Below are positions 8,574-64,000 of a stretch of DNA of 64,000 nt, piece after piece. How positions within the stretch are numbered: the first letter of the stretch is position 1; the number at the start of each line of letters is the position of its first letter. Made by a program: the position numbers and the translations under genes. The notes below the pieces were generated by a model, which saw nothing but the letters and a program-made list of their open reading frames with translations, made no database searches and was not told where the DNA came from. The stretch spans positions 372 to 64,371 of the forward strand of contig JAMCUH010000050.1 in assembly GCA_023379435.1 (NCBI GenBank), in the 5' to 3' direction. The stretch comes from Thermoplasmatota archaeon. Its GTDB lineage: Archaea > Thermoplasmatota > Thermoplasmata > Thermoplasmatales > Thermoplasmataceae.

Positions 8574-9144
8574 CTTCCTCTTCCTCTCCGTTCATCTGTG
8601 TATAATAAAGCTTCATGATGTCAAGGTAGTTGTATACGTCCGTCAGCTTCTCTATCACTGTGTTGGGATCATCCTTGACCGGACCCTGAAATCTTGCCTT
8701 CTCATAGTAATCCAGGTAGAATGCGGTAAGCTTCCTGAGAGCCATGATCCTGTTCTTGTTCCACTGAGGTATCTCCGAGCCCTTGTTCATGGCTTCTGAG
8801 AATAGGGAGTTATCAAGATATGCTTCATCAGGTATATTTATTCCGTTTAAGGCAAATTCCCTGATCAAGAACTGCCTGTTTGTATCCGAAGGTGATGGCG
8901 TGACTGAAAACTGACTGCAATAATCTTGCTTTGCCCTGTTGAAGCCTCTTTTAATCGCCTCCTGCATGTTACCGTCACCCACGAGCTTTCGGGCGTTAAC
9001 TATGGGAGGGATATCACCCACCGATCTCACCTTTATTACCGTCTTGCTTTCCCTCTTCTTGGCAGCGGCTCTCCTGAATCTTTTGAAGAACCCGCCCTTC
9101 TTCCTTTCATTTTTCTTTAAAACTTTCCCTTCATTTTCTTCCAT
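8566..9144 (-). CDS. Basic helical protein, DUF4129-like (tentative)
   Basis: The 192-aa protein has a lysine/arginine-rich N-terminus. It then reads ARKLVGDGNMQEAIKRGFNRAKQDYCSQFSVTPSPSDTNRQFLREF and later ALRKLTAFYLDYYEKARF. This resembles the DUF4129 pattern (helix, T-x-R-E/Q-F, then Y-x-x-a-R-Y/F) seen next to MoxR/DUF58 in other prokaryotes. The assignment is from memory of the family pattern, not a search. Confidence 0.4.
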   Translation of the reverse strand: MEENEGKVLKKNERKKGGFFKRFRRAAAKKRESKTVIKVRSVGDIPPIVNARKLVGDGNMQEAIKRGFNRAKQDYCSQFSVTPSPSDTNRQFLIREFALNGINIPDEAYLDNSLFSEAMNKGSEIPQWNKNRIMALRKLTAFYLDYYEKARFQGPVKDDPNTVIEKLTDVYNYLDIMKLYYTQMNGEEEEVG

Positions 9145-16293: not shown

Positions 16294-16560
16294 ATGGGAA
16301 AATTCAACGTGCTTAACCATGAGCTTGTCCCAGAGCATTATGTTCTGGATTCCAAGGAAGAGGAAAAGGTTTTAAGGGAACTGGGAATAACCAAGGACTT
16401 GTTACCAAAAATAAACAAGTCTGATCCGGCCATTATTGCATTGGAACAGAGCCACGGGGATATCAATCCCGGTTCTGTCATTAAAATTGTTAGGAAGAGT
16501 CCTACCGCCGGCATCTCTGTTTATTACAGAGTGGTAGTGAGTGGGGAGACAGTAAGATGA
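16294..16560 (+). CDS. rpoH: DNA-directed RNA polymerase subunit H (Rpo5)
   Basis: The 88-aa protein reads [36 protein letters not shown]...DPAIIAL...[14 protein letters not shown], the typical RpoH/RPB5 C-domain. It is the first gene of the rpoH-B-A'-A'' operon. A GGTGA Shine-Dalgarno-like element lies 5 nt upstream of the ATG. Confidence 0.9.
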
Positions 16561-19500
16561 AAGAGATAGTTGACGCGTTTTTTAGATCGGAAAGTGTTGT
16601 AAGTCACCAGCTTGAGTCCATGAACAATTTTCTCGCCTCCAAGGAGAATCCAAACAGCGTCATGCAGGCCATAGTTGATGAAACCAAAGTCACTGATGAT
16701 GACAAACCTGGAGTTATACAGCTCGATCCCACGAAAACCGGTGGCAGGGAAATCAAGATCTATTTTGGTAGGGTAAGGGACGATGGAAAGAGATTCGAGG
16801 AATCTACCATCTGGGTTGAAAAGCCAGAGATAAAGGAGGCTTCAGGCGCATCCAATCAGATCACACCAAACGAGGCAAGGCTCAGGGACCTCAATTACAT
16901 GGCGCCGATCATGTTAAGACTCAGGGTTTTCGAAGACGGCGTTGAAAAGGAAAACGAGACGATAAAGATCGGTGATATGCCCATCATGGTCAAATCCAAG
17001 GCATGCACACTCCATGAATCTAATCTGGATTCCTACATAGAGAAAAACAACGGAAGGGTTGATGATTCAAGGAAGGAGAAGCTTCAGTTTGTGGGCGAGG
17101 ATCCTGATGATCCGGGAGGATACTTCATCATAAGCGGCTCGGAAAGAGTCATTGTATCGCTGGAGGATCTTGCACCCAACAAGATCCTGGTTGAGTTCGA
17201 GGAAAAGTATGACAGTAAGGTAGAGGTTGCCAAGGTATTCTCGCAGAAAGGCGGCTTCAGGGCCCTCACAGCCATGGAGAAGAGCACTGACGGCATGATC
17301 AATGTATCCATACCTTCTGTTGCGGGAACTATACCCCTTGTTATACTTATGAAGGCGCTGGGCCTCGAGAAGGATAAGGAGATACATGATTCAATCGTTT
17401 CCGCACCTGAAATGGAATCAATCGTATATGCAAACCTGGAGGAGTCCAGGAATCCCAAGATTCTCCCTCCCAACGGTGTAAACTCAGTGGAGGATGCCAT
17501 TTCCTGGCTTGAAAAAAGGTTTGCCGCAGGACAAGCCAAGGAGTTCAGGGAAAAGAAGGTCTCACAGATGCTCGACAAGTCACTTCTTCCCCATCTTGGA
17601 GATACGCCGGAGGACAGGCTCACAAAAGCCGTATATCTTGGAAGGATGGCAAAGTCCCTTCTGGAACTTCACATTGGCATAAGGAAGGAAGATGACAAGG
17701 ACCATCTTGCAAACAAGAGAATGAAACTCACCGGTGATCTGCTGGATGAGCTTTTCAGGAATGCCTTCCAGAGCGTCATGAAGGATCTGAAATACCAGCT
17801 TGAAAGAACCTACAACAAGAAGAAGGGCATAAGAATCAAGCCTGCGGTGAGGCAGGATCTTTTGACGCAAAAGATACTCCACGCCATGGCTACCGGCAAC
17901 TGGAATGGTGGCAGGACTGGTATCTCACAGCTTCTTGACAGGGTGTCAAACGTCAGCACCATAAGCCACCTCAGGAGGATCATCTCTCCTCTTACAAGAT
18001 CTCAGCCGCATTTTGAGGCAAGGGATCTCCATCCAACACAGTGGGGCAGGATATGTCCCAATGAAACACCAGAGGGACAGAATTGCGGCCTCGTCAAAAA
18101 CGCAGCCCTTCTCATAAACGTAACAAAAGGTGTTGACTCATCTGATGTTCTGGAATTCCTCAGAACCAAGGGACTTGTGGAAGAGCCTTCCATAGGCGGA
18201 GAAATGGGAAGGGTGTACATCAACGGAGATTATGTGGGTTATGTTGTGGATCCGGAAGGAATTGCAAGGGCAGTTAGAATTGAGAGGAGATCCGCAAAGA
18301 TCTCAGACGAGGTTAACGTGAAATATGACTCGTCAACAAAGGAAGTTACCATAAATTGCGACAGGGGAAGACTGAGAAGGTGCCTTTTAACCGTTGAGGA
18401 TGGTAATACGCTTGTGAGCCGGGAGGACCTGGACGAACTGAGCCGCGGAGAGATAGGCATAAAGGATCTCGTTGCAAGGGGACTCGTAGAATGGGTGGAT
18501 GCAGAGGAAGAGGAGAATCTTCTCGTAGCAGTATACGCATACGATTTCCCTGAACGGTGCCCCCACTGCAGCAGCTACCTCTACAGATCAAAGATCGACT
18601 GGATGAATCCTGGTGATCTCAGCAACCCCGATAAGATAATTCTAAGATGCAATTTCTGCGGAAATACCTTTGAGGGGAAGAAACTTCTCAGGAAGGAGCA
18701 CACTCATCTGGAGATCGATCCTTCCCTCATACTGGGAGTGGTCGCTTCCGTTACCCCGTATCCAGAACATAACTCATCACCAAGAATCACCATGGCTGCC
18801 GCCATGACCAAGCAGTCCATAGGTCTTTCATCATCAAACTTCAGAATAAGAAGTGACACGAGGGGCCATGTGCTGCACTATCCCCAGGTCCCCCTGGTGA
18901 AAACAAAGGTCATGGATTATATAAAATATGACAGAAAACCTGCCGGTCAGAATTTCGTCGTTGCAGTTCTCTCTTACGAGGGCTACAACATCCAGGATGC
19001 CATAATATTCAATAAGGCATCAGTGGAGAGAGGATTGGGAAGAAGTTCGTTCTTCAGAACCTACACAGCCGAGGAGAGAAGATATCCAGGAGGTCAGGAG
19101 GACAGATTCGAGATACCCACACATGATGTTCTCGGAGCAAGGGCCGAGGAATACTACAAGAACCTTGATGAAACTGGCATAATATCCCCAGAATCATATG
19201 TTGGTGGGTCCGATGTGCTGGTGGGAAGAACTTCTCCGCCAAGGTTCCTGGAGGAGGGCGGAGAAAGGCTTGGCCCACAGAGGAGGAAGGAGTCTTCCAT
19301 AACAATGAGGCCAAACGAGACCGGCTGCGTTGACAACGTTATACTCACTGTTTCGGAAAGCAACAGCCGTGTTGTGAAGATCAAGGTGAGAAGCGAAAGG
19401 ATTCCAGAGCTGGGAGACAAGTTTGCCTCAAGACACGGCCAGAAAGGTGTCATTGGAGCGGTTGTACCCCAGGAAGATATGCCCTTCACAGAGGAGGGTG

Positions 19501-20152
19501 TCATACCTGACATTATAATCAATCCACATGCCATCCCATCAAGAATGACCGTTGGTCATATCCTTGAGATGATTGGAGGAAAGGTTGCTTCTTTGAACGG
19601 TGAAATCATCGACGGGACCATATTCAGCGGAGAACCTGAGAAGAGTCTTAGGCTGGAACTTCAGAAGTACGGATTCAGAGACAACAGCACCGAATACATG
19701 TATGACGGAATTTTGGGCACAAAATACAAGGTCGATATCTTCATAGGGGTGATATACTACCAAAAACTGCATCACATGGTTGCAGGAAAGTTCCATGCAA
19801 GGTCCAGAGGGCCCGTTCAGATCCTCACAAGACAGCCAACAGAGGGGAGGTCAAGACAGGGAGGGCTCAGGTTCGGTGAAATGGAAAGGGATACACTCAT
19901 AGCCCATGGAGCTGCAATGGTCATAAAGGACAGGCTTCTTGACCAAAGTGACGGCACCATTCTCTATGTTTGCGGAAACCCAAGCTGCGGTCATCTTGCC
20001 ATATTTGACAGGAGGAAGGGAACCCTCAGATGCCCCGTATGTGGTAATACCGGGAATATACACCCCATCGAAACAAGTTACGCATTTAAACTGATGAGGG
20101 ATGAGCTTGCCACGATGGGTGTAATGATGAGACTTGTACTGGGTGATTTGAA

Positions 20153-20156
<4 letters not shown>
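16557..20156 (+). CDS. rpoB: DNA-directed RNA polymerase subunit B (Rpo2), unsplit
   Basis: Conserved blocks include [56 protein letters not shown] and the C-terminal zinc site CGNPSCGH...CPVCGN. The 1,199 aa sit in one ORF, with an ATGA overlap with rpoH. Confidence 0.97.
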
Positions 20157-37578: not shown

Positions 37579-40500
37579 ATGGAAGAGGATCCAAGGATCA
37601 AGAGATTCCAGAGGAAGATGGAGGTGGAACTCTCAGATCTGAACGCAACCCAGACAGGAAAAATACTGCCTGTCGACATTGAAAGGTTATCCAAAATAAT
37701 CCTTGACGATTCTGACTTGATTAACTACCTTATGTCAGAGGATAACATCATAACAACCCTTGAGGAGATGACACTGAACAGGAAGCTTACGGCCGCGGAT
37801 CTTGAAATGTTCACGAAGGGTATCGCTTCCGTTGCAGGAAAATCACTTTTTTTTGATTATCTCAGAGCACTAAGGAGTTTCTCCGACCGGGACTACGAAG
37901 GTTGCATAGATATTATTACGGGACGCAGTGATTTTCTAAATTATCCTCAGTGCAGGAATTTGCTGAAGCTTTCCTGTCATGAGGCGGGAAGTTACACGAA
38001 AGCTGCGTTTTACCTGGCATCCTCAGGAGTTTATGACGAATTGATTTTTGAAGGTTTTAAGAAGGAACACCCAGACGACAAGACCCTGGATGATTTTTAT
38101 GATACAATATCAAAACAGAAGAATACAAATGACATTTGTTCGTTATATAGAATTCTCTCGGATTTGAGAAGATCGGATAGAATTCTCATGGAGCTTTGCA
38201 GATGCTACCTTGAAGTGGGTGACAATGAAAAATCAAAACAGATTATACCGAAAATCAATTTCGAGGATTTCAGTGAGAGAAACAGCTTCAAGGATTTTAT
38301 AACGATTGCACTGAAGTCAGAGCAGTATAACCAGGCATACAGAGCATCTAAGATTGCAACAGGTTTGTACCCGGACGATCGGAGGATAATGCTCCTCTAC
38401 GCAGATTCACTCAATGGTGTGGGAAGAACTGACGAGGCGGTGGAATACGTGGAGCAGATGCTGAAAAAATACCCTGACTTCACTGACGCAATCAAATACC
38501 TGATCGATCTCTTTTACAGTAAGGGTGACTATGCAAATTTCCTGAGGTATTCCGCCACAATAAAGGATTCCCTGGTTCAGGATGTACAGTGGAGAATAAA
38601 GATCATAAATGCAGAGATCAATCAGTCTGATTTCGACAATGCAAAGAGAGATATCATAAGTGCAGAAAATGCCTATCCCAGCAACCCTGAAATACTAAGC
38701 CTAAAGCTTGACTTTCAGATGCTTATTAACGATGCCAATGGCGCTTTTACCACTGCAAGGGAAATATTCCGAATGGACAGGAATGACAGAAGGGCAAGGG
38801 ATTTTCTATTCTATGAACTGTTCAGCAAGCAGGATTATGAGGAGCTTCTTAGGGACATTGAAGAATTTGGCAGGGATGACGATTACCTTCACTTGAAGAT
38901 CGCGTCACTTATCTACATGGGAAGAATAAATGATGCCATAACGGCAGGCAGAAGGGACAAAAGTATCTTTCAGGACGATGTTGTCCTCGACTCCATTTTC
39001 TTCACGGTCAGGGATGATAGTTCAATCAAATCAATAGTTGAAGTTTCCGGTGACGACTCTGGCCTTCTTTCGGTGGTCATCAAGAGCATCCGGGGCTCCA
39101 GGATAGTCTGGAGGGAGGAACTGTGGAATTCCGTTATATCCAGTAACTCCGTAGCAATAGCATGGATAGCGTCAAAATCCACTGTTAATTTCAGGGACGG
39201 AGTAAGACCGGATGTCCTTACAAGCTTTGTGTCAAAGCAGGCATTCAATGTTGTGAACAACCTTGTGGATGCAATCTTTCTCATCTACAGCGGTAAATTC
39301 AGCGAAGATATGAAGGATTCCAGGAAGTTCATGTATCCAATTACTGAGGCACTTCTCGAAACCGGCAATACTGAACTTGCAGAGAAAAAGCTGCAAGAAG
39401 CTTATGACCCAAGAAATCCGGATCCATTTTTTTATTACATGGATGCATATGTTCTCTTCAGGGAAGGAAATTATTCACAGTCCTTGAAGATGCTGTCCAG
39501 GGCTCTTGAAAATCTCTCAAATTCATCATTCCTTATCCTTAAGATAAGAAATTTTCTCAAGCTTGATGACCTGGATTCCGCATTGGAAACCGTGGATAAC
39601 GTGGATGCACTTGATGCCATAGGTTCTCTGTGTTACTCAGATCTTTACAATTACATTGAGGAAAAGAAAGAACCGGCAATAAGAAATAGAATCATTGAAA
39701 AAATGAAATCGCTCGGAGTGAAGAACATATGGATAGAGCGCATGGAAAGGGATAAGTATTCAGAGGAAAAAAATTACGATGACGCAGTTAGGGTTTCCAG
39801 AATAATTGTTATGAGTAAGTCGAAAACTGCTGGTGATGTCCTGACTCACGCTGAAATCCTGAAGGCGTCTTCCAAGGACAATGAAAGGCTTCAGTTTTTG
39901 GAATCAGTTGAGAAGGAAACATCAGATTTCAAGATAGACATCTGGATAGCCGATTCCAAATACCTCAGAAAGGAATACAAGGAAGCCGTTGAATATTACA
40001 GGAAGGCCATAGAAAAAGGCTGTCAAATTCAAGAGATCATAAATTATCCTGACGCTCTCATAGCAGGAGGCTTTTATTATGAGGCTGAGGCTGTTATCCG
40101 GTCACTCCCAGATCCAGTTCTTTATCTCGTTAAGCTGTACCACAGCACGAGCAGAATCGATGATTTGGTAATCCTACTATCATCACTTGAATACGAGAAG
40201 AGATCGGAGATAGAAGCCTTCCAGTATGCCTCTGAAGCACTCTGGGTAAACAGAAAGGTCAGGGACACACTGGTAAACATATTTTACCACACCGAAAATC
40301 CCACGCTGGGTAAGATCATATCCCAGAGGCTCCTGGAATCGAGGGACCTCATTAGCGCCGAAAAAATTATGAGAGCCTTGATGAAGGCCTATCCAAAGGA
40401 CATTGACAATATGAGATCACTTGCGTCCCTTCTGTACGAGACGAACCATCCAATTGAGGCATTAAACCTGCTTGGTAAGGCTGTTAAAGCCGCATCCGAC

Positions 40501-41262
40501 TCGGATCAGAGATCTTCCGCCCTTGATCTCATGGCGCAGATAATGTATGAAACTGGTGATTTCAACGGTCTCAAAAAACTCTATTCGGGAAACACAAAAA
40601 TGCTGAACCAGAAAAACCTTCAGTGGATCATACGGAGCCTCATCGAAACCTATGAGTTCGACCAGGCGGATCAGCTTATGGGGCAGTTTCATGGAAACAT
40701 CCTCCCGGACGATGTTTTCAAGGAACTTGTGGAGGAGATGAACACAAAGAAGGAGTTTCTCAGGCTACAGAGCTACGCTGCAAAAATATTTGACGTTGAG
40801 TACAAACTCGGGAAGGTTCTTACAGCAGATGAGATAGTTTATCAGGCTGATATCCCGCTGAATGTTGTTGAAGAGGTATACCATTTCATTGACAGCGAGT
40901 CTTATTATATCGAAGAGGATGAGCCTTCCTACGAAATAATCACGCGGGACCTTTTCAAGAGGATTGTCAGGAAAACAAACATAGATAATATCATATATGT
41001 AAAGATTAACATAATATATCACAATTTACCAAGGAAGGACGTGATTCTTGCGAAGAACATATACATATACATAAAAAAATGCCTCAGGAAGAGAAGATCA
41101 CCATTACTCAACGACAAGAGAATAAATTCACTGCTAAAGTCTGCCCTGAAAATGAATCTAAGGAGAGAGCCACTTGAGGTTGCATATAATCTCAACATTG
41201 GGATGGATGAAGCAATGGATGTCATCACACTGATTGAATACGTCAGAAACCTGGACGGATAG
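37579..41262 (+). CDS. Very large (1,227 aa) cytoplasmic all-helical TPR-repeat protein
   Basis: TPR-like 34-residue periodicity recurs throughout. Examples are YNQAYRASKIATGLYPDDRRIMLLYADSLNGVGRTDEAVEYVEQMLKKYPDF and YKEAVEYYRKAIEKG. I see no TM segment, no convincing NTPase motif and no catalytic motif. Confidence 0.75.
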   Translation: MEEDPRIKRFQRKMEVELSDLNATQTGKILPVDIERLSKIILDDSDLINYLMSEDNIITTLEEMTLNRKLTAADLEMFTKGIASVAGKSLFFDYLRALRSFSDRDYEGCIDIITGRSDFLNYPQCRNLLKLSCHEAGSYTKAAFYLASSGVYDELIFEGFKKEHPDDKTLDDFYDTISKQKNTNDICSLYRILSDLRRSDRILMELCRCYLEVGDNEKSKQIIPKINFEDFSERNSFKDFITIALKSEQYNQAYRASKIATGLYPDDRRIMLLYADSLNGVGRTDEAVEYVEQMLKKYPDFTDAIKYLIDLFYSKGDYANFLRYSATIKDSLVQDVQWRIKIINAEINQSDFDNAKRDIISAENAYPSNPEILSLKLDFQMLINDANGAFTTAREIFRMDRNDRRARDFLFYELFSKQDYEELLRDIEEFGRDDDYLHLKIASLIYMGRINDAITAGRRDKSIFQDDVVLDSIFFTVRDDSSIKSIVEVSGDDSGLLSVVIKSIRGSRIVWREELWNSVISSNSVAIAWIASKSTVNFRDGVRPDVLTSFVSKQAFNVVNNLVDAIFLIYSGKFSEDMKDSRKFMYPITEALLETGNTELAEKKLQEAYDPRNPDPFFYYMDAYVLFREGNYSQSLKMLSRALENLSNSSFLILKIRNFLKLDDLDSALETVDNVDALDAIGSLCYSDLYNYIEEKKEPAIRNRIIEKMKSLGVKNIWIERMERDKYSEEKNYDDAVRVSRIIVMSKSKTAGDVLTHAEILKASSKDNERLQFLESVEKETSDFKIDIWIADSKYLRKEYKEAVEYYRKAIEKGCQIQEIINYPDALIAGGFYYEAEAVIRSLPDPVLYLVKLYHSTSRIDDLVILLSSLEYEKRSEIEAFQYASEALWVNRKVRDTLVNIFYHTENPTLGKIISQRLLESRDLISAEKIMRALMKAYPKDIDNMRSLASLLYETNHPIEALNLLGKAVKAASDSDQRSSALDLMAQIMYETGDFNGLKKLYSGNTKMLNQKNLQWIIRSLIETYEFDQADQLMGQFHGNILPDDVFKELVEEMNTKKEFLRLQSYAAKIFDVEYKLGKVLTADEIVYQADIPLNVVEEVYHFIDSESYYIEEDEPSYEIITRDLFKRIVRKTNIDNIIYVKINIIYHNLPRKDVILAKNIYIYIKKCLRKRRSPLLNDKRINSLLKSALKMNLRREPLEVAYNLNIGMDEAMDVITLIEYVRNLDG

Positions 41263-41850
41263 ATGTATTATCAGAGAGGAATTTCACAGCAGGAATTCCG
41301 TGACCTTGGAATCTCCATTCTTGTGTATACCATTGCATTCACCATATGGTCATACAGAGTGGACGAACTTCCTGGAGTACCCACCTACCTTGTTGTTGTT
41401 TCCTCCTTCCTTGTTGCAATATTTGCTTTCCTTCTTCATGAGTTTGCACACAGGTATTTTGCCAGGAGTTATGGTGGGCTTGCTGAATTCAGGATGTGGC
41501 CCATTGGAGCCTTTCTAGCCCTGGTCACTGCAGCTATTGGCTTTCTCTTTGCAGCTGTGGGCGCTGTTTACATACAGGGCATCTACGATAAGGATAAGGT
41601 AGGAAAGCTTTCCCTTGCGGGACCGGCAACAAATATTGTAATTGGCCTTATATTCTACGGACTTAGTCTTGTTTATGACGCAGGATCGGCTTTCCTAATT
41701 CTGAGGTTCGTTGCAACAATTAATTTTTACATAGGATTTTTCAATCTTCTTCCAATACCTCCACTGGATGGCTATAAGGTATTTATCTGGAGCAAGGAAT
41801 ACTATATCATTGCAATTGCATTATCACTGCTTTTCCTGATAATACTTTAA
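41263..41850 (+). CDS. Site-2 protease family (peptidase M50) intramembrane metalloprotease, minimal form
   Basis: The HExxH motif lies in a TM helix (FLLHEFAHRYFA). The second signature is FFNLLPIPPLDGYKVF (NxxPxxxLDG). The 195-aa polytopic protein has no PDZ or CBS domains. Its ATG follows the TPR gene stop with zero spacer (TAGATG). Confidence 0.85.
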   Translation: MYYQRGISQQEFRDLGISILVYTIAFTIWSYRVDELPGVPTYLVVVSSFLVAIFAFLLHEFAHRYFARSYGGLAEFRMWPIGAFLALVTAAIGFLFAAVGAVYIQGIYDKDKVGKLSLAGPATNIVIGLIFYGLSLVYDAGSAFLILRFVATINFYIGFFNLLPIPPLDGYKVFIWSKEYYIIAIALSLLFLIIL

Positions 41851-42105
41851 TGTCCGTGTGATCTATATTCACAGCATGAGTTGGAGAAAATCCATCCAGA
41901 TTTCACGCGCGTATGAACAACGGTGATTTGCCATATTTATCTTATTTTTAAAATTCAGGCGCTGTAGGGGAGATCACCCACCACGTTTGCAATGCGAGAT
42001 TTTTTTCCTCCTTGTACGAAGAATAATGTTCCGTGACAGGATAATAATAATTGCCGGATCAGCTTTTTATACGGCAATTCCATTATGCTGGACTGGGACT
42101 GAAAG

Positions 42106-45100
42106 ATGTATGAGTTAGAAGAAAGCAGATACGACAGGATCATGGATTTCTTCAGGAGAAGTCCAGAGATACCAATCATTGCTATCCTAGTATCGTTATA
42201 CATCTTGCTGGGCAATCTGTATGCTTATCCTGTCACACTGGTTGGAGCCTTCAAGGGCGCATTTTTCCCCACGTCTGGAGGAAGCGACCCTTACTACAAC
42301 TGGAGGGCAATTGAGTACACCATAATAAACCACCACTGGCTTTACTATGATAATGCCATAAATTATCCTCTGGGAACGGGAAATCCTAGAACACCGTACT
42401 TTCACTTCCTGATAATAATGGTTGCATACATTACATCCCCATTTGTGCATGTTCTTACGGGAGCAGAAATAGGGCTCCTGGAAATAGATGCAGTGTTTGG
42501 AGGGCTGCTCATAATTCCCGTCTATCTCATGGGAAAGGAATTATTCGGAAAGAGAGCCGGCCTTATCGGTGCTGTAATATACACCCTCATACCAAGCAAC
42601 CTTACATCCGGCATACTTTCAGACGGAAGGATGCATACCCCTGAGCTGATATTCGCATTCTTCACCATATACTTTTTCCAGATGGCACTTAACAAGGTTA
42701 ATAAGACCAGGATAATAGAAAACCTCACGGATTTAAGATCGTATGTTTCTTCTATAAAACGATTCATTGGATCAAACATGCTGAGCGTCATTTACATACT
42801 TCTTGCGGGCACCTCAATGGCGGCCCTTATGCTTGCATGGCAGGGTTATGCCTACATAGAAGCCATAATTGTAATTTACATTTTCATCCAGTACATTTTC
42901 AATATTCTGACAAGAAAACCATCGGGCTATCTTTTCCTGTTCAGCATACTCTTCATGTTAATAGCATTCGGAATAGGTTCCTACTATTATGTGGGAATAG
43001 GGGATGCAAGATCATGGCTCTATAATGAGATTTACCTCGGAATAGTCACCGTCGCTTTTGGTTTTCTTGTAACTGCTGTATCAAGGAGACCATGGCTTGT
43101 GTCAATATCCATAATAGCCATTATTTCGGTGCTGGGTTTCGCTGCAATTGATATCCTGAAGCATGGTCTCATTACATACCTGATATCCGGTGCCGGATAC
43201 TTTGTTAAGACAAGAGTATACAGTACCATAGCAGAAGCAGCGGCTCCCCCACTTGGGCAGTACATAGGTGGATTTGGGGCAGCTGAATTCATCATAGGTA
43301 TAAGCGGCCTTGCTTACATCCTGTATTATTTCGCCAAGAACAGAAAAGATTCCATATTTTTCATGTTCATCTTCTCCATCATTTCAATTTACATGAGCTT
43401 TGCTGCTGCCAGATTCAACATTACAGCAGCACCTGTATATGCCATCCTAGGGGCGGGTCTTCTTGTATACCTCGCAGACGTTGTAAGGTTATATGAAATC
43501 AAGAATAGGAGAGCAACAGAGCAGATGGGTATTAAAAAGTCCATCAAGGGTAATATCAAACCTATCCACGTGTTCTTCGTTGTTCTGATTGTGCTTGCAC
43601 TTCTAATTCCTTCGGGCTTCACCATGGTTGATGCAGCAGTACCCGCTAATAATGCGGCTTCACTGAATAACCAGATTTATAACTCACTTCCTTCGTTTCT
43701 CCGGCCTTCAAACTATTCTTCATCCAGTGACAATTTTGTCGGATCGTACGGTGTTGGAATAATCAATTCCAGTTATCCCCTGAGCCAGGCCTTTGAATGG
43801 CTTGCAACGCAGAATACAAACGTTCCGCTCTGCCAGAGACCCGCTTTCGTTTCATGGTGGGATTATGGCTTCGAGGAAGTTATACAGGGAAAACACCCTT
43901 CGGTTGCTGATGACTTCCAGCAGGGTTATCAGGTTGCTGGACAGGTTCTTCTTTCCCAGAATGAGAGCCAGATAATAGGCCTATTCCTTGCCAGAGAAGT
44001 CCAGGGTTCCTATGAAAAGAACAATTCCAGGATCACGCCGGCACTCTTCAACACATTGGCCACATATCTTGGCTCAAAAGAAGCAAAGAATATAGAATCA
44101 TATATACAGGATCCATCAAAATATTCTTACATTGTTCTAAGTGACCCAAGTGTGTATGGTAATTATTCATCGGTGATAGGACCGCAAAACACATATTTCG
44201 CTCTTGTTGCCGGGCAACTGGCAGAAGATTATCCCCTATCCACCATTGTAAATGCCTATCAGGCCGTATCCTCTCTGACAGGATCATTCATCCAGTACAT
44301 TGGCGTAACAGCTGCAGGAAGCAGCTCCCTTTTCCCTTATTCAGGAAATGATACTGGCATCTTCTACGCTCCTTCCTATCTATCAGATCACTCTACATAT
44401 ACATATGAGGGCGAAGTTGTTCCATACGAATTCTACAACATCATTGCGGAAACCTCCAACGCCACATATCCTTTGAAGGATCTTCCCACCGGCGCTTCTG
44501 TCACAGGTTACCAGATCCAGTATACTCCGGAATTCTACAACACAACGATTTACAGAGCGGTCATTGGGTATCCACCAAGTGCTGTTGGCCAGACGGGTGG
44601 CATACCAGGCATCGATTACGACCAGAGCAACCTTTCCGCCATGCCTGCATGGAACATGAGCAACTTCATCGTTGAATATTATCCAGTTCTTTATAATCCC
44701 TATAAGGATTACAAGGCTCATATCAGCGATTTTCGTATAATTTCCCTTCAGCAGGGCTATAAATATGCAACTGAGAAGAACGGAACTGTGTTCATGTTCT
44801 CCCCGATGAGCGAGTTGGTAACAGATTCAAATCCCATACTAGCTTACTATCCCGGCGCCACGGTAACCGGAAGAGTTACAACATCAACCGGTGCTCCCGT
44901 TTCAGGCGTGCTCGTTACCATATACGATCAGTATGGCATACCGCATGAATATGTGAGAACCAACCGCCAGGGCTATTACAACCTCACAGCTCTCCCTGGA
45001 AATGATACCGTATTAATATCCGAAGGCAAAATGTCACCATTATATCTTGCAGGAAGTAACGTGCTTGACTCATTCAAGGTAAATGTCACGCAGAATGAGG

Positions 45101-48100
45101 CAAACCGCATACCAACGTCTTACAATGCAACAACTGACCTTCCTGATTATTACTTTGTAAGGAATTATGTCTTGAAGAATACCACACTTTCAGGTTCTGT
45201 TGAAATTAAGAGACAGACGTCTCTGAATGAAACAGCAACCACTGGCTTCAACCTTTCGTACATAACAAAGGGATACGTTCAGTTCACAAATTCCACTTAT
45301 GGTTACGTGAAAAATGTAACAATTTCCGATGGGAACTACACCATTAGCGGCCTCCCTCCCTATAACTACTCAATTTCAGTTATAAGCAACGGCGTCACCT
45401 ATGAAAATGTTTCATCCTATGATGTGGGAACGTCCAACGCAACATATAATGTGGATGTTAATATGGACACCATATTTGCTCTAACATATTCTTCTGTTTA
45501 TCCCCTAACTCACTATAGGGTGGTGGCAACATCATCTTCCAATACGTATACATCGTATTCCAATTCCACTGGTACTGCCACCATATGGGTGGTTCCCGGT
45601 AACTATACTGTTCGTGGAGACTCCAATGGCTCAATAAGTACTTTCACAAATGTTTCGTTCCCCTCCTGGGGCTTAAATTACACGGTGAGCCCAACTCCTG
45701 TGTTATCTGCAAACGTATCAGGCCTCGTCAAAGGTACCGGTTCTACTGTTAATATATCATTCTTCCACGACGGGCAGATAAGGAAGGATTCACTCACTGC
45801 ACGTTCTGTTAACGGGAGCTATGATGCGATAATTCCTGTTGGAACATACACTATTTATGCATACGGTGGAGGAAAAGCATACCTGAAAACAGTTGTCGTG
45901 AACAGCGACATGAATCTAACGATCTACATGAACAATTCATACGACCTGAATTTGACCTCATCCATTAAAGGGATAGCGAACTACACCGCAACCTACGAGG
46001 TTCTATCGCCAGGGGGATATCTCTCATATTACGGCCTTAATTCATCCTTGGCAAATTACCATAATTTTGCTCTTCCTGAGGGACAATATGAGTTTGCAGT
46101 TTGGGCAGTGAGCGACGGGAACGATTATTCTGGGACTTCATCCGCATACGTATCCTCATCAAGGTCATTGAATGTACCAATGACCTTTGAGAGTAATCTT
46201 ACTGCCTGTTTGTTTGACTCCTCGAAGGGTTCCAGCTACGGTGGTTCCACATATATCTCACATGGAATAGCGATCCTTTATTATGCCGGTTACCCCATAT
46301 ACTTCACAAATGTTTCAGGGAGTGGCCTTGCATATCTCCACTACAAAGTAACATATCCATCGATGCTCTCACTTGAACTTGAGCATTCCGGTTTCGCTTC
46401 AGGTCTTGTCAATGTGAATTCATCCACAGTTCAGGTTGGCTTGAATCCATTAACGGTTAACTTCACGGTTCTTCTGGGAAACGGAGTGAAAGGGACATTC
46501 CTTCTGGACGGAGCAACGCCCTATGTTATAACGGTCTCAAATGGAATTGGAACCGCATCTGTACTCCCAGGGGTGTATGGTATTAGTGCCGCCTCCCCAT
46601 ATGAAGAGCTCAATCTCACGGCATCGGTACTAACAGTACCAGTTTCGCAGAATTTCTCTTATGTTTCCACATACACAACACATTACAATGTTACATCCAG
46701 TTCTGTGTTCGAACTATTCAACAGTGAGGGAAAGTTGGTTGATCCCAGATATATTTCAGCGGGAACTTACACATTCTACTCCTTCAGAAATGGTCTGGTA
46801 AATATTTCAAGCATTTCGGTGAACGCCAATGTTAACGTAACGCCGACATTTTACAGTGGATTCTCTGTGACTCTTACAAACAGCCTTGGAAATCCCGGCG
46901 GTTATTATCTTGTCACCAGTGGGGATCTCACTGTGAACACCACCGGAACCCTCATACTTCCAGAAGGAACTTACACCATATCATATTTCGGAAGGTCCGA
47001 AACTGGTGGAGTGGACAGAAGCATCCATGGAACAACGTCCCTCTATGTGAGTACTGGCATTGCAGTGAGCGTTCCAGTTACATCCAGAGATGTTTATTCA
47101 CAAATAGATGGTTACATACATGGGTCTTCAGTTGCAAATATATTTGTATACAATCAGAAAGGTGTTGTGGTCAATTCCACAGTATCTGGCAGGAATGGTT
47201 ATTACAGCCTGGGTCTCTTCGGCGGAAACTATACGCTCTATTACATCAATTCCAACAGTTCAAAGGTATATCTCAGGTCATACATATTCTCTCCATTTTC
47301 GTCATACAGTGATGTCAATGCTACTCTCTCTACCTCAAACAAGGTATATCTTTACACCTCAGTAAATGGAATTCCAATATTCCTGAACGTTACCATTATA
47401 GCAAGCCATATCGATCTTAGCTACAACTCATCCAACGGTTATGTCATGCTGCCTTCAGCAGTATATGCTTTCTCTGCTTCACAGAACGAGACATTTGTAA
47501 ATTACACCGGATCAACGCTGTATGTATCATATGCTGCAGGAGAAACGGCCTATGTTTCCGGTACAACATACATAAACCTGAACCTGGAAAGACACAACAT
47601 TTACGACTTCAACCTCACACAGATTAACAAAACGGCATCTGCATATCCACTGACCAATGTAACATATGAATTTACACTGAGAAACACAGGTAATACAAAT
47701 GTTACAGTAAAGCTTTATACCGGCAATTTAACCTGGAACATGACCTTCCAGCAGAAAAAGCTCACGCTTCTATCAGGCCAGATGATGTATGATAATGTTA
47801 CGGTAACGGTGCCACTTTCAGCTCCAGCCGGGCTCAACACTGTACCCGTAAGGGTAAACTACAGCGGCGGAAATTTCACAGGCGATGTTAAAATAAGCGT
47901 ATTGAAGAAATTCGGCTATGTGATAAAACCTGTTTCCAGCTATCTGGTTGGCTATTCCATCACAAATTCAACTAACCTTTCACTCATGCACCTCACCGAG
48001 GTGGCCATACCCAACGGAACTGCCTTCATGATGCCACTAAATTTCACAAACACAGGAAATGCGCCGGAGAATATTACCCTTGAACTGAACACAACTGTCA

Positions 48101-48474
48101 TTTCCAGTTATGGCTGGAATGTCTCCCTTGTGCATGGAGGAAAGGCAGTTAGTAGTCTTTACCTGGGATTTAATTCCACAGAAACAGTTTATGCTGTCAT
48201 TACCCCCAACGGATCCGACACATCACATCTGAAGGGAGGATACTTTGATGTTAGCACGGTTGGACCATCCGGAACAAAGAACTACGAGGTTATAATGACG
48301 CCTTTCTATACACCTTCACTTCACGTGACACCATATCCAACGGGCAATCAGATAATCAGCAATTATACAGGTAACCCGACAACAACACTCATAACAGGAC
48401 TTATCATAATAGTGGTTGCTGTTTTGGCTGGTTTGATACTTGCGGCAAGCAGATCAAGGAGAAACAACAGATGA
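42106..48474 (+). CDS. aglB: Oligosaccharyltransferase AglB (STT3 family) fused to a ~1,200-aa repeat-rich, C-terminally membrane-anchored ectodomain
   Basis: The N-terminal ~900 aa form a polytopic STT3-like region. It has the loop motif GGSDPYYNWR, the TIXE-type motif STIAEAAAPP, WWDYG at nt 43855-43869 (FVSWWDYGFEE) and ADDFQQG. From about nt 44848 come carboxypeptidase-regulatory-like and CARDB/NEW3-like beta-sandwich modules. These carry about 63 N-x-S/T sequons by hand count. The C-terminus has a TM helix plus a basic tail (LITGLIIIVVAVLAGLILAASRSRRNNR). Confidence 0.85.
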   Translation: MYELEESRYDRIMDFFRRSPEIPIIAILVSLYILLGNLYAYPVTLVGAFKGAFFPTSGGSDPYYNWRAIEYTIINHHWLYYDNAINYPLGTGNPRTPYFHFLIIMVAYITSPFVHVLTGAEIGLLEIDAVFGGLLIIPVYLMGKELFGKRAGLIGAVIYTLIPSNLTSGILSDGRMHTPELIFAFFTIYFFQMALNKVNKTRIIENLTDLRSYVSSIKRFIGSNMLSVIYILLAGTSMAALMLAWQGYAYIEAIIVIYIFIQYIFNILTRKPSGYLFLFSILFMLIAFGIGSYYYVGIGDARSWLYNEIYLGIVTVAFGFLVTAVSRRPWLVSISIIAIISVLGFAAIDILKHGLITYLISGAGYFVKTRVYSTIAEAAAPPLGQYIGGFGAAEFIIGISGLAYILYYFAKNRKDSIFFMFIFSIISIYMSFAAARFNITAAPVYAILGAGLLVYLADVVRLYEIKNRRATEQMGIKKSIKGNIKPIHVFFVVLIVLALLIPSGFTMVDAAVPANNAASLNNQIYNSLPSFLRPSNYSSSSDNFVGSYGVGIINSSYPLSQAFEWLATQNTNVPLCQRPAFVSWWDYGFEEVIQGKHPSVADDFQQGYQVAGQVLLSQNESQIIGLFLAREVQGSYEKNNSRITPALFNTLATYLGSKEAKNIESYIQDPSKYSYIVLSDPSVYGNYSSVIGPQNTYFALVAGQLAEDYPLSTIVNAYQAVSSLTGSFIQYIGVTAAGSSSLFPYSGNDTGIFYAPSYLSDHSTYTYEGEVVPYEFYNIIAETSNATYPLKDLPTGASVTGYQIQYTPEFYNTTIYRAVIGYPPSAVGQTGGIPGIDYDQSNLSAMPAWNMSNFIVEYYPVLYNPYKDYKAHISDFRIISLQQGYKYATEKNGTVFMFSPMSELVTDSNPILAYYPGATVTGRVTTSTGAPVSGVLVTIYDQYGIPHEYVRTNRQGYYNLTALPGNDTVLISEGKMSPLYLAGSNVLDSFKVNVTQNEANRIPTSYNATTDLPDYYFVRNYVLKNTTLSGSVEIKRQTSLNETATTGFNLSYITKGYVQFTNSTYGYVKNVTISDGNYTISGLPPYNYSISVISNGVTYENVSSYDVGTSNATYNVDVNMDTIFALTYSSVYPLTHYRVVATSSSNTYTSYSNSTGTATIWVVPGNYTVRGDSNGSISTFTNVSFPSWGLNYTVSPTPVLSANVSGLVKGTGSTVNISFFHDGQIRKDSLTARSVNGSYDAIIPVGTYTIYAYGGGKAYLKTVVVNSDMNLTIYMNNSYDLNLTSSIKGIANYTATYEVLSPGGYLSYYGLNSSLANYHNFALPEGQYEFAVWAVSDGNDYSGTSSAYVSSSRSLNVPMTFESNLTACLFDSSKGSSYGGSTYISHGIAILYYAGYPIYFTNVSGSGLAYLHYKVTYPSMLSLELEHSGFASGLVNVNSSTVQVGLNPLTVNFTVLLGNGVKGTFLLDGATPYVITVSNGIGTASVLPGVYGISAASPYEELNLTASVLTVPVSQNFSYVSTYTTHYNVTSSSVFELFNSEGKLVDPRYISAGTYTFYSFRNGLVNISSISVNANVNVTPTFYSGFSVTLTNSLGNPGGYYLVTSGDLTVNTTGTLILPEGTYTISYFGRSETGGVDRSIHGTTSLYVSTGIAVSVPVTSRDVYSQIDGYIHGSSVANIFVYNQKGVVVNSTVSGRNGYYSLGLFGGNYTLYYINSNSSKVYLRSYIFSPFSSYSDVNATLSTSNKVYLYTSVNGIPIFLNVTIIASHIDLSYNSSNGYVMLPSAVYAFSASQNETFVNYTGSTLYVSYAAGETAYVSGTTYINLNLERHNIYDFNLTQINKTASAYPLTNVTYEFTLRNTGNTNVTVKLYTGNLTWNMTFQQKKLTLLSGQMMYDNVTVTVPLSAPAGLNTVPVRVNYSGGNFTGDVKISVLKKFGYVIKPVSSYLVGYSITNSTNLSLMHLTEVAIPNGTAFMMPLNFTNTGNAPENITLELNTTVISSYGWNVSLVHGGKAVSSLYLGFNSTETVYAVITPNGSDTSHLKGGYFDVSTVGPSGTKNYEVIMTPFYTPSLHVTPYPTGNQIISNYTGNPTTTLITGLIIIVVAVLAGLILAASRSRRNNR

Positions 48475-49244
48475 AAGCTTTTGTAATCTCTATTCTCATA
48501 GTACTGTTTTCGATGTCACTTGTTCCAGCGATATCAGTGGCAACTGCGCCGTCTCCAGCTGTATTCAGTGCTTCCGCTGTCTATCCTTCAGATGTGTATA
48601 CCGGTGAAAGCTTTCAGATTTATATCAATGCCACCTACGGTTTCACAAACTATTCGGTTGGATTGATATTTTCTGCGGATAACCTCTCAGGCATTTCGCC
48701 CGGTGCATTTGATCACCTTAATAATGCAAGCAATCCATATTTTGTGATCGATGTAACTGCGCCGTCTTCACAGGAATCGCTAACTATATACGTATCGGTG
48801 TTTGCACAGGGCTATTATGGAAACGTCTCTCATTACATGACACTTCACATTAATGTTTACCGGCCCATGATACTGACAGCAATGGTCACAAACCCGACTG
48901 CATCCGCCATGTATAATGTAACTGTAACATTCTACCTGGATTCTTTTGAAATTGATAGCTCTGTGATCAAGTCAATTGCCCCCCATCAAACAAAGATCGT
49001 CAACGAGACCATTGTCAGACCAATCTTCATGAAGAAGGGATACAACACACTCACAGTAAAGGTGAGCAATTCCGCAGCCCTCATCAACAATGCAGCATCC
49101 TACAGCACGAAATTCTATTATGGGAAGCCACCCAACTACACATGGATCTACTATGTTGCTGCAGCCGTACTCATTTTCATGGTGGTAATGGTGATCGCAG
49201 CAGGAAGAAGAAGCTCAAAGCTTGGACCCAAATGGAAGAAATAG
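48471..49244 (+). CDS. Type-I membrane glycoprotein with CARDB-like domain
   Basis: The signal peptide is MKAFVISILIVLFSMSLVPAISVATA. The CARDB-like module is NVTVTFYLDSFEIDSSVIKSIAPHQTKIVNETI...GYNTLTVKVSN. The C-terminal TM plus basic tail is WIYYVAAAVLIFMVVMVIAAGRRSSK. It has 8 sequons in 257 aa and an ATGA overlap with the aglB stop. Confidence 0.65.
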   Translation: MKAFVISILIVLFSMSLVPAISVATAPSPAVFSASAVYPSDVYTGESFQIYINATYGFTNYSVGLIFSADNLSGISPGAFDHLNNASNPYFVIDVTAPSSQESLTIYVSVFAQGYYGNVSHYMTLHINVYRPMILTAMVTNPTASAMYNVTVTFYLDSFEIDSSVIKSIAPHQTKIVNETIVRPIFMKKGYNTLTVKVSNSAALINNAASYSTKFYYGKPPNYTWIYYVAAAVLIFMVVMVIAAGRRSSKLGPKWKK

Positions 49245-49245
49245 A

Positions 49246-49902
49246 TTAAGTGAGGAATTTCCTTATTGTCACGAATTCCCTTTCAAATATTTCCTTCCTC
49301 TTCAGACCAGCGAAGTTTACTGTCCTGTAGCTGCTGTCTTCTGATCTGGCAATTCTTGCTGCAGAAAGGGCATTGTTGTGAAGGTTGTGTGGAAAGCTCG
49401 TATTGCTCTCGTCCACGATCTTGACCGGTATTCTCATGACAAGGAGTTCCCGCTCAATGATCTTCCTGTTGGGAAGATCGCCATCGCCGAGCCGGACAAC
49501 ACACTCCTTATAATCATAATCAGACATGATTGTGGATAGCACCCTTGATATCCTGTGCGGATCGACAATCTCGAAGGCTTCAAGGAGAACACTGTCACCC
49601 ATAACCGCGACGCCCGGTCTGGGCCCCGGATCTATGCCTATGACAATTTTGCTGAACTGGCTCTTGCCCATAACTCTCGGGAAAACCTTCCTCATGACAC
49701 CCAGGGGATCATTACCCCTGATCTGAAGAGCCCCCGCATCCGGGTCCCCAAGTGCACTGATAATTATCTGTGCATGTGTTTCCTGTGATGCGGATGTTAA
49801 CTCCTCAAATGGCACATTCATCCTCTTAAGTAGCTGCACTATATTATGATAAAACAGAAAATTTGACGTGAAAACGCCAAGCTTTGGCATCTTATACTCC
49901 AT
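49246..49902 (-). CDS. Hypothetical protein, possible RNase H-fold (RuvC/YqgF-like) nuclease domain
   Basis: In this 218-aa protein, the segment KIVIGIDPGPRPGVAVMGDSVLLEAF resembles the first beta-hairpin/catalytic Asp of RuvC/YqgF-type RNase H-fold proteins (I-G-I-D-P-G-x-x-x-G-x-A). A later RLGDGD and DESNTS could supply further acidic residues. The functional call is weak. Confidence 0.35.
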   Translation of the reverse strand: MEYKMPKLGVFTSNFLFYHNIVQLLKRMNVPFEELTSASQETHAQIIISALGDPDAGALQIRGNDPLGVMRKVFPRVMGKSQFSKIVIGIDPGPRPGVAVMGDSVLLEAFEIVDPHRISRVLSTIMSDYDYKECVVRLGDGDLPNRKIIERELLVMRIPVKIVDESNTSFPHNLHNNALSAARIARSEDSSYRTVNFAGLKRKEIFEREFVTIRKFLT

Positions 49903-62622: not shown

Positions 62623-62934
62623 GATGCGTTATCATTGCAAATTTTTAGGTTGTCACAGCTTTTGTCAGTTTTTGTTAAGATATCACGCGAAATGCTCCAA
62701 CATAATGGATAGAGGATGAGACTATGCTTCGATCCATCTGCAAGGATCAAATGTGTCGACGTGATAAAGGCTCAAGAGCGTCCATCACGAAGAAATGAGA
62801 AGGTTTTTCGAAGGAGTATTAGGAATGCTTTAATTCGAATATTGTTAATATTGTGCATGAACATGAATATCACCCACATAATATTTAAAAAAGTCAAAAA
62901 AAAAATTAATATACGATATGTTATTTTATACATT

Positions 62935-64000
62935 ATGGAACATACAAGTTCCAGAGCAATCAAGATTATTGCAGTTCTGATAGCAATTGTACTGATTGCA
63001 ACTGTAACATTTGTGATCTATGATTCAAGATCCCCGGCAGGTAAATCAAATAAAGTTCCTAAAAGTGCCTCCTTTGGCCCCAAGATAGATGTTTCAGTTG
63101 GCCCGGTTGATTCTGCAACATCAGGAGACCAGAATTCCGGAATTGTCAACAATACCAGCATAACACTCCAGATATTCTCCGTTGTTCCTTCCTTGTTTTC
63201 AGGATCCACCGGTTCCGCAAGCCTTATCAACGCAAATATTTCCGACAACAGCTATTATGTTGAACTGCTGAACACAACACTTAACAGTTCCAGGGCCACG
63301 GTATTTCTCTCACCTCTTTTCGTAAACATATCACGGGAATGGAATGAACTCTTTTCAAAAATGGAGGGAAGGAATTATCCTTCCCTCTCCGTTGATGCCT
63401 ATAAAACAGTTATTGTAAACAGCACAGTTCAGATCTACAAATATTACAACAACATTGAATATAACCCGGAAATGGTTGATGTATCCACATTCAACAACAT
63501 TCAATCCGGGAATACAGTGCCAGACCTGGAAAGCTATTTCAATGGAACGGGCCTCAATCTCTCCGATTATTCCAGCATTTCCATCACCGATCTTTCATTT
63601 ACATTGAACATAACATTTCCAGATACACCGTATCAGACACTTACCAATGTCACCATGTCATCAGGGAAAAGTGATGGTTCACCCTTCGTAACCATGACAG
63701 GCAGCAGTGGCTGCATAACAACATACAGATGGGATAACTACTCATCCACATACGATTCTGTCACTGGAATCAATACAACAGAGGGTTATCTTCCTCTCCT
63801 GGCTCTTCATATGGGAAGGGCAACTGCAGAGAGCCTTTCACTAATTTCCCTAGGAGGGACTCTAACTTTATTAAACAACACAATAGGAATTAATTCCGCT
63901 GAACCTTATGTGTCATCAAGTGGTGAAGTAACAACTCAGATGAGCACCAATCCTTCGTTTGCAGTTCTTGCAAATGCATCTGTGGCTTCAAGCTCGAAGA
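62935..64000 (+). CDS. N-terminally anchored secreted protein, sequon-rich (5' part; gene runs off the window end)
   Basis: I translated by hand from the ATG at 62935. The frame stays open for 355 codons to nt 64000, so it is absent from the ORF track. The N-terminus is MEHTSSRAIKIIAVLIAIVLIATVTFVIYDSRSP (signal-anchor). Many N-x-S/T sites follow, including NNTS, NIS, NTT, NSS, NST, NGT, NLS, NIT, NVT, NYS and NAS. An A/T-rich promoter-like tract lies upstream at 62880-62930. Track ORFs 62772..62963 and 63018..63248 are antisense or overlapping artefacts. Confidence 0.65.
   Translation, partial: MEHTSSRAIKIIAVLIAIVLIATVTFVIYDSRSPAGKSNKVPKSASFGPKIDVSVGPVDSATSGDQNSGIVNNTSITLQIFSVVPSLFSGSTGSASLINANISDNSYYVELLNTTLNSSRATVFLSPLFVNISREWNELFSKMEGRNYPSLSVDAYKTVIVNSTVQIYKYYNNIEYNPEMVDVSTFNNIQSGNTVPDLESYFNGTGLNLSDYSSISITDLSFTLNITFPDTPYQTLTNVTMSSGKSDGSPFVTMTGSSGCITTYRWDNYSSTYDSVTGINTTEGYLPLLALHMGRATAESLSLISLGGTLTLLNNTIGINSAEPYVSSSGEVTTQMSTNPSFAVLANASVASSSK

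Follow-up and report, generated by a model that had tools for sequence, protein, structure and literature searches.

To our knowledge, the characterised oligosaccharyltransferases (OSTs) of archaea and bacteria are treated as single-subunit enzymes of ~600-1,050 residues. In the eukaryotic OST, STT3 is joined by type-I accessory subunits with beta-rich lumenal domains (ribophorin I/Ost1, OST48/Wbp1 and ribophorin II/Swp1). Here we describe an STT3/AglB-family protein of 2,122 aa, together with the gene that follows it, on a 64,000-nucleotide stretch (positions 372 to 64,371 of contig JAMCUH010000050.1, assembly GCA_023379435.1) of an uncultured Thermoplasmatota metagenome-assembled genome (MAG). 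We refer to this whole stretch as the window, and to an earlier interpretation made from its letters alone as the sequence-only reading. The sole solved relatives of the protein by sequence are the Archaeoglobus fulgidus AglB-L structures 3WAJ and 5GMY; residues 56-608 align with residues 42-574 of 3WAJ (E = 2e-9).

The long form is the standard AglB across Thermoplasmata. On balance we think it probable that this 'AglB-long' is a Thermoplasmata-type OST in which a real enzyme carries a built-in, re-anchored extracellular scaffold and likely has a second subunit, glycosylation of the scaffold being secondary. Two surveys underlie the comparisons that follow. Among 5.8 billion proteins searched, 185 relatives were found, and the homologue counts are based on the 120 of these that were listed. 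A scan of GTDB with one genome per species returned at least 483 relatives, and the locus counts cover the best 79 loci, which span Thermoplasmatales, DHVE2/Aciduliprofundum, I-plasma and Methanomassiliicoccales-like genomes.

The aglB gene is a single uninterrupted open reading frame (ORF) of 2,122 codons at 42106..48474 on the forward strand. As the sequence-only reading had proposed, its N-terminal half is a complete STT3/AglB, and every motif lies where it had been placed. Pfam STT3 (PF02516) matches residues 60-473 with E = 2.6e-12 (47.4 bits, cutoff 24.5). The NCBIfam model archaeo_STT3 (TIGR04154) aligns with residues 55-623 only and scores 174 bits, short of its cutoff of 450 bits; the protein is related to this archaeosortase A-associated AglB subfamily but is not a member of it. 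The membrane domain (residues 1-505, 42106..43620), which is defined by these matches, by the alignment with 3WAJ and by a hydropathy scan, contains ~13 hydrophobic segments. It includes SDPYYNWR at residues 60-67 (nt 42283-42306), where D61 of the sequence GGSDPYY aligns with GGNDPWY of A. fulgidus AglB-L, the DXD-type acidic residue of external loop 1. TIAE at residues 374-377 (nt 43225-43236), a TIXE-type motif in external loop 5, aligns with TIAE of 3WAJ. D61, T374, I375 and E377 are invariant across 14 diverse orthologues.

The membrane domain is followed by the extracytoplasmic catalytic globular domain (residues 506-914, 43621..44847), which is among the best-conserved parts of the ORF and shows a weak match to the C-terminal domain of A. 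fulgidus AglB (3VGP). Downstream of WWDYG, the ORF has no match to Pfam AglB_L1 or to a Pfam C-terminal domain. WWDYG itself occupies residues 584-588 (nt 43855-43869) and ADDFQQG residues 601-607, and both are invariant or nearly so in the orthologues. WWDYG is carried by 119 of the 120 listed homologues (at approximately residues 566-623) and by all 79 loci. A DxxK or MxxI motif is not evident in the ORF. An invariant N619, part of a sequon, and a near-invariant Q622 (LLxQNxSQII) lie ~35 residues past WWDYG, where DK/MI-type motifs are found in other OSTs. We assign the protein to the STT3/AglB oligosaccharyltransferases (GT66) because of the STT3 and archaeo_STT3 matches, the alignment with A. 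fulgidus AglB-L and the invariant D61, TIAE and WWDYG. Judged from these sequence features its catalytic identity is secure, and transfer activity is predicted.

Two other classifications were considered and rejected. The NCBI name of the window protein, shared by many orthologues, is 'glycosyltransferase family 39 protein', derived from a marginal PMT_2 match. This match covers only residues 104-198 at 28.3 bits (cutoff 26.1), compared with residues 60-473 for STT3 together with WWDYG, and we regard it as a cross-hit between GT-C enzymes rather than as GT39/PMT identity. An archaeosortase-type C-terminal sorting signal was likewise dropped: no PGF-CTERM-type model of NCBIfam matches the ORF at E <= 1, and the juxtamembrane motifs of AglB and of the downstream protein are unlike. 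A possible archaeal TATA box, TTTTTATA, was spotted by eye at 42064..42071 (+), ~35 nt before the aglB start codon.

Past the catalytic domain the chain continues in the same frame for ~1,200 aa, and the sequence-only reading was right to describe a fusion to a beta-sandwich ectodomain with a second membrane anchor. Its first module (residues 915-1005, 44848..45120), which it had called carboxypeptidase-regulatory-like, is a CarboxypepD_reg beta-sandwich that carries a conserved sequon, N966 (PGNDT). Pfam CarboxypepD_reg (PF13620) is detected in three stretches of the ORF, the best of which is residues 919-976 (E = 1e-15, 58.2 bits, cutoff 32.3). Module 1 is conserved like the catalytic domain, with 36-55% identity even to Methanomassiliicoccales-like orthologues, and residues 51-1000 as a whole are well conserved over 63 orthologues. 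Residues 1-1005 make up one complete AglB, consisting of a 13-segment GT-C membrane domain, acidic and TIXE loops, the WWDYG domain and one tightly integrated CarboxypepD_reg module.

The middle array (residues 1006-1760, 45121..47385) comprises ~9 divergent, sequon-dense CarboxypepD_reg-like modules, as judged from an iterated hidden Markov model (HMM), an AlphaFold 2 (AF2) model and Foldseek. The HMM iterated from module 1 finds six to eight modules in all, at residues 921-1002, 1044-1121, 1126-1204, 1205-1281, 1284-1361 (weak), 1450-1529, 1524-1588 (weak) and 1668-1747. The membrane-proximal tail that follows (residues 1761-2085, 47386..48360) contains two Ig/CARDB-like modules at approximately residues 1841-2043 (nt 47626-48234), which were delimited by hhalign comparison with the family of the downstream gene. 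The sequence-only reading had taken the last two modules for CARDB/NEW3, but Pfam detects neither in the ORF, and only a faint HYDIN/VesB Ig-like match is seen there. In total the extension has ~13 domains, counting the CarboxypepD_reg-like modules and the two Ig/CARDB-like modules near the membrane. The AF2 model of residues 915-2094, built from 64 sequences, is all-beta with a mean predicted local distance difference test (pLDDT) score of 86 and a pTM of 0.47. The chain ends in a second anchor (48379..48474), formed by a hydrophobic helix at approximately residues 2092-2113 (hydropathy 3.05), the basic tail RSRRNNR and the stop codon. The helix and a basic tail are present in every full-length homologue. 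Beyond residue 1005 the chain forms ~12 more extracellular beta-sandwich domains and returns to the membrane in a second transmembrane helix, whose basic tail is presumably cytoplasmic.

This architecture is not a novelty of the window genome but is standard across Thermoplasmata, and orthologues from Thermoplasma acidophilum (CAC12262.1/Q9HJ37, 2,081 aa) and T. volcanium (BAB60377.1, 2,076 aa) were already in GenBank and UniProt. Approximately 115 of the 120 listed relatives are full length, at 2,045-2,161 aa, 35-72% identity and ~100% coverage. The 63 complete ORFs with a C-terminal helix among the best 79 loci have a median length of 2,098 aa, with a standard deviation of 42. A Ferroplasma acidiphilum orthologue of 2,061 aa is annotated as 'multipass membrane protein, required for N-linked glycosylation', and other orthologues occur in Cuniculiplasma, Caldiplasma and Oxyplasma. 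MCL4335364.1 is the accession of the window protein, and an identical 2,122-aa protein is present in several independent assemblies. Among the orthologues are some from complete genomes (Oxyplasma meridianum, NZ_CP133772.1; an uncultured archaeon, CP009479.1), and those of T. acidophilum, T. volcanium and F. acidiphilum lie on contigs of 1.56-2.2 Mb.

The extension beyond module 1 (residues 1006-2085) has low sequence conservation, with 13-25% identity to the most distant, Methanomassiliicoccales-like orthologues, yet its length is kept within 2%. A phmmer search with these residues against 1.84 billion representative proteins gave 49 matches and no detectable free-standing relative. Fourteen of the 18 strongest matches are AglB-long proteins of 2,063-2,114 aa aligned at the same position, and the other four are shorter proteins that appear to be fragments of the same family. 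Weak matches of unrelated proteins are confined to one CARDB-like module, at approximately residues 1805-1925. The array is matched nearly only inside AglB-long, and we therefore take the extension to belong to the enzyme. An origin by fusion with a free-standing surface protein was considered and set aside: a 942-aa CarboxypepD_reg protein encoded elsewhere in the window is similar only at E ~1e-3 (BLASTP), and the phmmer search finds no stand-alone relative.

The gene immediately downstream of aglB (48471..49244, forward strand) encodes a protein of 257 aa, which we call the partner. Its start codon overlaps the aglB stop codon in an ATGA at 48471-48474, which was verified in the DNA, and GGAG lies 10-13 nt upstream. 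The partner has a signal or anchor helix at residues 2-22, beta-sandwiches at approximately residues 34-130 and 133-217, a transmembrane helix at residues 224-245 and a tail ending in GPKWKK. The AF2 model (pLDDT 82.9) shows the same order of N-terminal helix, two beta-sandwich domains and transmembrane helix, and Foldseek matches it to tandem Ig-like barrels in the PDB. The overlap, the two hydrophobic helices and the eight sequons (2.8 expected) that the sequence-only reading had reported for this gene all hold. Its description as CARDB-like is in keeping with the family profile, which matches a solved 114-aa domain of an archaeal 'cell surface protein' (2L0D) with E = 5e-5, but Pfam CARDB (PF07705) scores 17.8 bits against a cutoff of 22.7; precomputed PF07705 matches exist for five of 15 homologues. 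The NCBI model of this gene (P0121) is 216 aa long and starts at an internal GTG (V42), so that it lacks the N-terminal hydrophobic helix and predicted signal peptide. The 257-aa form with the ATGA overlap is the more likely one because downstream ORFs at other loci have kept the N-terminal helix.

The pairing of the two genes is nearly constant. A partner-homologous ORF, recognised by profile match, lies directly downstream of aglB in 63 of 65 loci, with a spacing of -19 to +5 nt, and the overlap is 4 nt in 40 of 58. The best-conserved stretch of the partner is the juxtamembrane segment, transmembrane helix and tail (FYYGxPPNYxWIYYVA...AGRR...PKWKK) rather than the ectodomain, a pattern typical of segments that may make a specific intramembrane contact. 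When partner family residues 37-251 were aligned with AglB residues 1841-2121 by hhalign, the match had a probability of 96.8% and E = 2.3e-10. With the transmembrane helices and tails removed, the probability was 82.7% and E = 9.4e-6. Control alignments of the partner profile with other parts of the extension or with the catalytic globular domain gave probabilities of 3% or less. By profile comparison, the partner and the end of AglB, with its last two Ig-like domains and anchor, are paralogous. The partner is a small type-I membrane protein on the same transcript as AglB, with stop/start coupling.

Given these features, the extension and the partner would form an extracellular frame of fixed size that belongs to the enzyme, as a built-in accessory scaffold. 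The partner would pair with the paralogous membrane-proximal tail of AglB, and the frame may hold the catalytic site in position, shield it, or arrange it with respect to other membrane machinery. That the extension and partner are parts of the enzyme is suggested by conservation, gene coupling and paralogy, from which both their interaction and an effect on activity are predicted.

Several observations weigh against this interpretation. The proposed contact between AglB and partner, and any effect on OST activity, are deduced from operon structure, paralogy and conservation. Foldseek searches with both models return generic Ig-like/alpha2-macroglobulin-like arrays, with no OST accessory subunit in the top 50. 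The pTM of 0.47 leaves the overall shape of the modelled array undefined, and it may be a rod, an arch or a ring. AglB-long could also be cleaved after synthesis. Finally, the orthologue of Acidiplasma aeolicum VT (locus L024, NZ_LKBG01000236.1, ORF 4623..8900) is only 1,425 aa long. It has an in-frame loss corresponding to window residues ~1295-1963, in a contig with no N-runs. What remains is the catalytic half with the first modules, followed by the last module and the transmembrane anchor. This short form is either a genuine deletion or the product of repeats collapsed in the draft assembly. If the deletion is real, the middle array is dispensable in culture, which tells against a strict 'ruler' function.

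A more specific proposal goes further, and we hold it only tentatively, as somewhat doubtful. AglB, its 13-domain frame and the type-I partner would together be the holoenzyme of a multi-component Thermoplasmata OST. The membrane-proximal tail and the partner would form a pseudo-heterodimeric foot with paired transmembrane helices, and access of substrates, or else coupling to secretion, would depend on this fixed geometry. In such an enzyme a counterpart to the accessory subunits of the eukaryotic OST would have evolved independently, and the view commonly stated, that archaeal OSTs consist of a single subunit, would have an exception.

A different role for the extension is suggested by its sequons. 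The sequence-only reading had counted about 63 N-x-S/T sites in the extension and eight in a 1,199-aa RpoB ORF (16557..20156), and both counts are exact. The enrichment also survives control for composition. Residues 915-2122 contain 63 sequons compared with 24.9 +/- 4.2 in composition-preserving shuffles (z = 9.1; none of 5,000 shuffles reaches 63), and the reversed motif [ST]-x-N occurs 27 times. From this density it had been proposed that the extension is primarily a dedicated, self-glycosylated coat, a glycocalyx or S-layer substitute that serves as substrate in cis and is tethered at both ends over a wall-less cell. The excess over the shuffled expectation is in keeping with this proposal, as are the predicted extracellular, all-beta nature of the extension and the high counts in all acidophilic Thermoplasmatales orthologues; across the 120 listed homologues the extensions carry 43-85 sequons each. 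Moreover, N-glycosylated membrane proteins are known from T. acidophilum (PMC2952790, PMC11407970).

However, the distribution of sequons across lineages argues otherwise. Density is 4-6.7 per 100 aa in acidophilic Thermoplasmatales orthologues (z 6-10) and 2.5-3.5 per 100 aa in those of DHVE2 (z 4.6-6.5). Several Methanomassiliicoccales-like orthologues (loci L061, L062, L068, L078 and L053) have only 0.6-1.1 per 100 aa (z <= 2.2), and these keep the full architecture, length and partner without the enrichment. The sites themselves are also poorly kept. On average a window sequon is shared by 27% of close homologues (background 3.5%), only ten of the 63 are present in at least half of them, and most turn over between genera. 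Because the architecture is retained without enrichment and the sites turn over, we conclude that sequon saturation is a lineage overlay and not a conserved feature of AglB-long. Three sequons are kept class-wide, N619 (nt 43960-43968) in 58 of 63 orthologues, N966 in 53 and N850 in 50. All three lie in or beside the catalytic globular domain and are possible conserved self-glycosylation sites.

Sequon density is also not peculiar to the extension within the window. A free-standing 942-aa ORF at 9147..11975 on the reverse strand, with an N-terminal signal or anchor helix and three CarboxypepD_reg stretches (Pfam E = 5e-24), contains 57 sequons (6.2 per 100 aa; z = 10.7 against shuffles) and is denser than the AglB extension. 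Its product is probably a major surface glycoprotein of this organism. The ORF at 62716..64000 (+), which continues past the end of the window, begins with hydrophobic segments and carries 16 sequons over its 428 aa, or 3.7 per 100 aa (z = 3.2); it matches no Pfam family and is a candidate surface glycoprotein. Cytoplasmic-looking ORFs of the window mostly have 0-1 sequons per 100 aa. High sequon density is a mark of the surface proteome of this organism and not of the AglB extension specially, because a free-standing protein exceeds the extension while cytoplasmic-looking ORFs are low. It does not single out the extension as a dedicated substrate.

The idea of a coat meets further difficulties. 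The same architecture is present in lineages with reported or predicted S-layers, such as the acid mine drainage (AMD) plasmas and Aciduliprofundum, which weakens an origin as S-layer substitute. An enzyme is unlikely, as a matter of general knowledge, to be made in the amounts that a cell coat needs. Some Thermoplasmata cells have been described as lacking a cell wall (PMC5155288, PMC3750248), but for the window, which comes from an uncultured MAG, a 'wall-less archaeon' was an assumption. Indirect evidence from these sequence comparisons thus argues against AglB-long as an S-layer or cell-coat protein, and we consider it unlikely that the extension is primarily a coat. Under the scaffold interpretation that we favour, acidophilic Thermoplasmatales would have loaded the frame with sequons because it is surface-exposed, as they did their own other surface proteins. 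In these acidophiles the frame would probably be glycosylated by AglB itself and so add to the glycocalyx. Such self-glycosylation and glycocalyx contribution are plausible from the sequon pattern, but would be a secondary, lineage-specific layer and not the reason for the architecture.

It is also conceivable that AglB-long is a polyprotein, synthesised as a single chain that is subsequently cut near residues 900-1010 or at another point, giving an AglB of normal size and a separate surface glycoprotein with a C-terminal anchor, possibly paired with the partner. In some drafts the gene is indeed annotated as two pieces. In their supplement, Yelton et al. 2013 (PMC3750248) tabulate a single AglB per genome for six AMD plasmas, without comment on size; in two of these, E-plasma and Fer2, it appears as a pair of adjacent 'split' gene calls. 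In Ferroplasma Type II, a 1,395-aa 'carboxypeptidase regulatory-like domain-containing protein' is annotated. However, these split annotations come from draft metagenomic bins and are more simply explained by frameshifts. The M50 protease gene directly upstream of aglB in the window is a weak hint at best, and it is syntenic in only two of 79 loci. The junction, module 1, is conserved like the catalytic domain and has no low-confidence linker; its high conservation and confident fold suggest an integrated domain rather than a cleavage linker. We regard processing of this kind as very unlikely. An artefact, in which a missed stop, a frameshift or a chimeric assembly joins an ordinary AglB to a surface-protein gene, is excluded because identical proteins occur in independent assemblies and more than 100 orthologues, some from complete genomes, have the same architecture; base composition is also even along the ORF.

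The M50 gene just mentioned (Peptidase_M50, 41263..41850, forward strand) encodes a site-2-protease-like protein of 195 aa with six transmembrane segments and an HEFAH motif. It is preceded by a gene for a 1,227-aa TPR-repeat protein (37579..41262, forward strand). A functional link of aglB to either gene was rejected, as neither is syntenic (one or two of 79 loci). On the other side, a 218-aa ORF at 49246..49902 on the reverse strand converges on the partner gene with 1 nt between the stop codons. This ORF has no Pfam or NCBIfam match; at 42 of 79 loci, some of them in DHVE2 and I-plasma-type genomes, a homologue lies next to aglB and its partner.

Databases already list the AglB-long family, but most entries bear misleading names, for example 'glycosyltransferase family 39 protein', 'hypothetical' or 'carboxypeptidase regulatory-like'. 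A full-text literature search turned up no treatment of the ~2,100-aa length, of the second anchor or of the partner, although subscription papers, which lay outside the search, might mention the length. The accessions of the T. acidophilum, T. volcanium and Ferroplasma orthologues appear in no paper among the searched full texts. The present work adds that the long form is conserved throughout the class at a tightly controlled length, that its coupled partner is paralogous to the AglB tail, that the array has no detectable free-standing relative, and that sequon saturation is specific to certain lineages. AglB-long is twice the usual size of an OST across a whole class, including the model thermoacidophile T. 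acidophilum. If the frame and partner are functional parts of the enzyme, they would offer a tractable prokaryotic example of accessory extracellular modules added to an STT3 core, and would bear on how Thermoplasmata cells organise heavy surface glycosylation.

Among known systems, A. fulgidus AglB-L (3WAJ/3WAK, 5GMY/7E9S) shares with AglB-long the N-terminal GT-C domain with its many transmembrane segments and the external WWDYG globular domain. Its solved chain has 875 residues, compared with 2,122 in the window protein, and lacks the beta-sandwich array and second transmembrane anchor; a conserved partner gene has not been reported for it. By spacing from WWDYG, and not by structural alignment, N619-x-S-Q622 of the window protein would stand at the expected DK/MI position. 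The domain types of the extension and partner are those of archaeal CARDB and CarboxypepD_reg cell-surface proteins (PF07705, PF13620, 2L0D). These families describe single domains, whereas AglB-long is distinguished by a fixed order of 13 domains, by their fusion to AglB and by its paralogous partner.

A likeness of another kind is to the abundantly glycosylated proteins of thermoacidophiles. SlaA of Sulfolobus acidocaldarius has 31 predicted N-glycosylation sites (PMC2948927), and like the membrane glycoproteins of T. acidophilum it shares with the extension an extracellular location, beta-rich structure and many N-x-S/T sites. Those glycoproteins are separate structural proteins, whereas the AglB extension has no detectable free-standing homologue and is kept in lineages without sequon enrichment.

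Homology to OST accessory subunits was considered and rejected. None is found in the top 50 Foldseek matches of either the extension or the partner model, which are Ig-like, alpha2-macroglobulin, transglutaminase-barrel and hydin arrays only. For the extension these are generic multi-beta-sandwich arrays with TM scores of ~0.1 (hydin, alpha2-macroglobulin, complement and integrin legs), and sequence and profile searches of the PDB give only 2L0D and AglB fragments. The eukaryotic OST is therefore kept as an analogy. As an analogy only, it shares an STT3-family subunit that stands beside extracytoplasmic beta-sandwiches carried on single C-terminal transmembrane helices. It also shares the use of more than one polypeptide, which is implied here by the conserved, coupled partner gene; the complex itself is putative in Thermoplasmata. 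Unlike in the eukaryotic OST, most of the accessory mass of AglB-long is covalently fused to the catalytic subunit.

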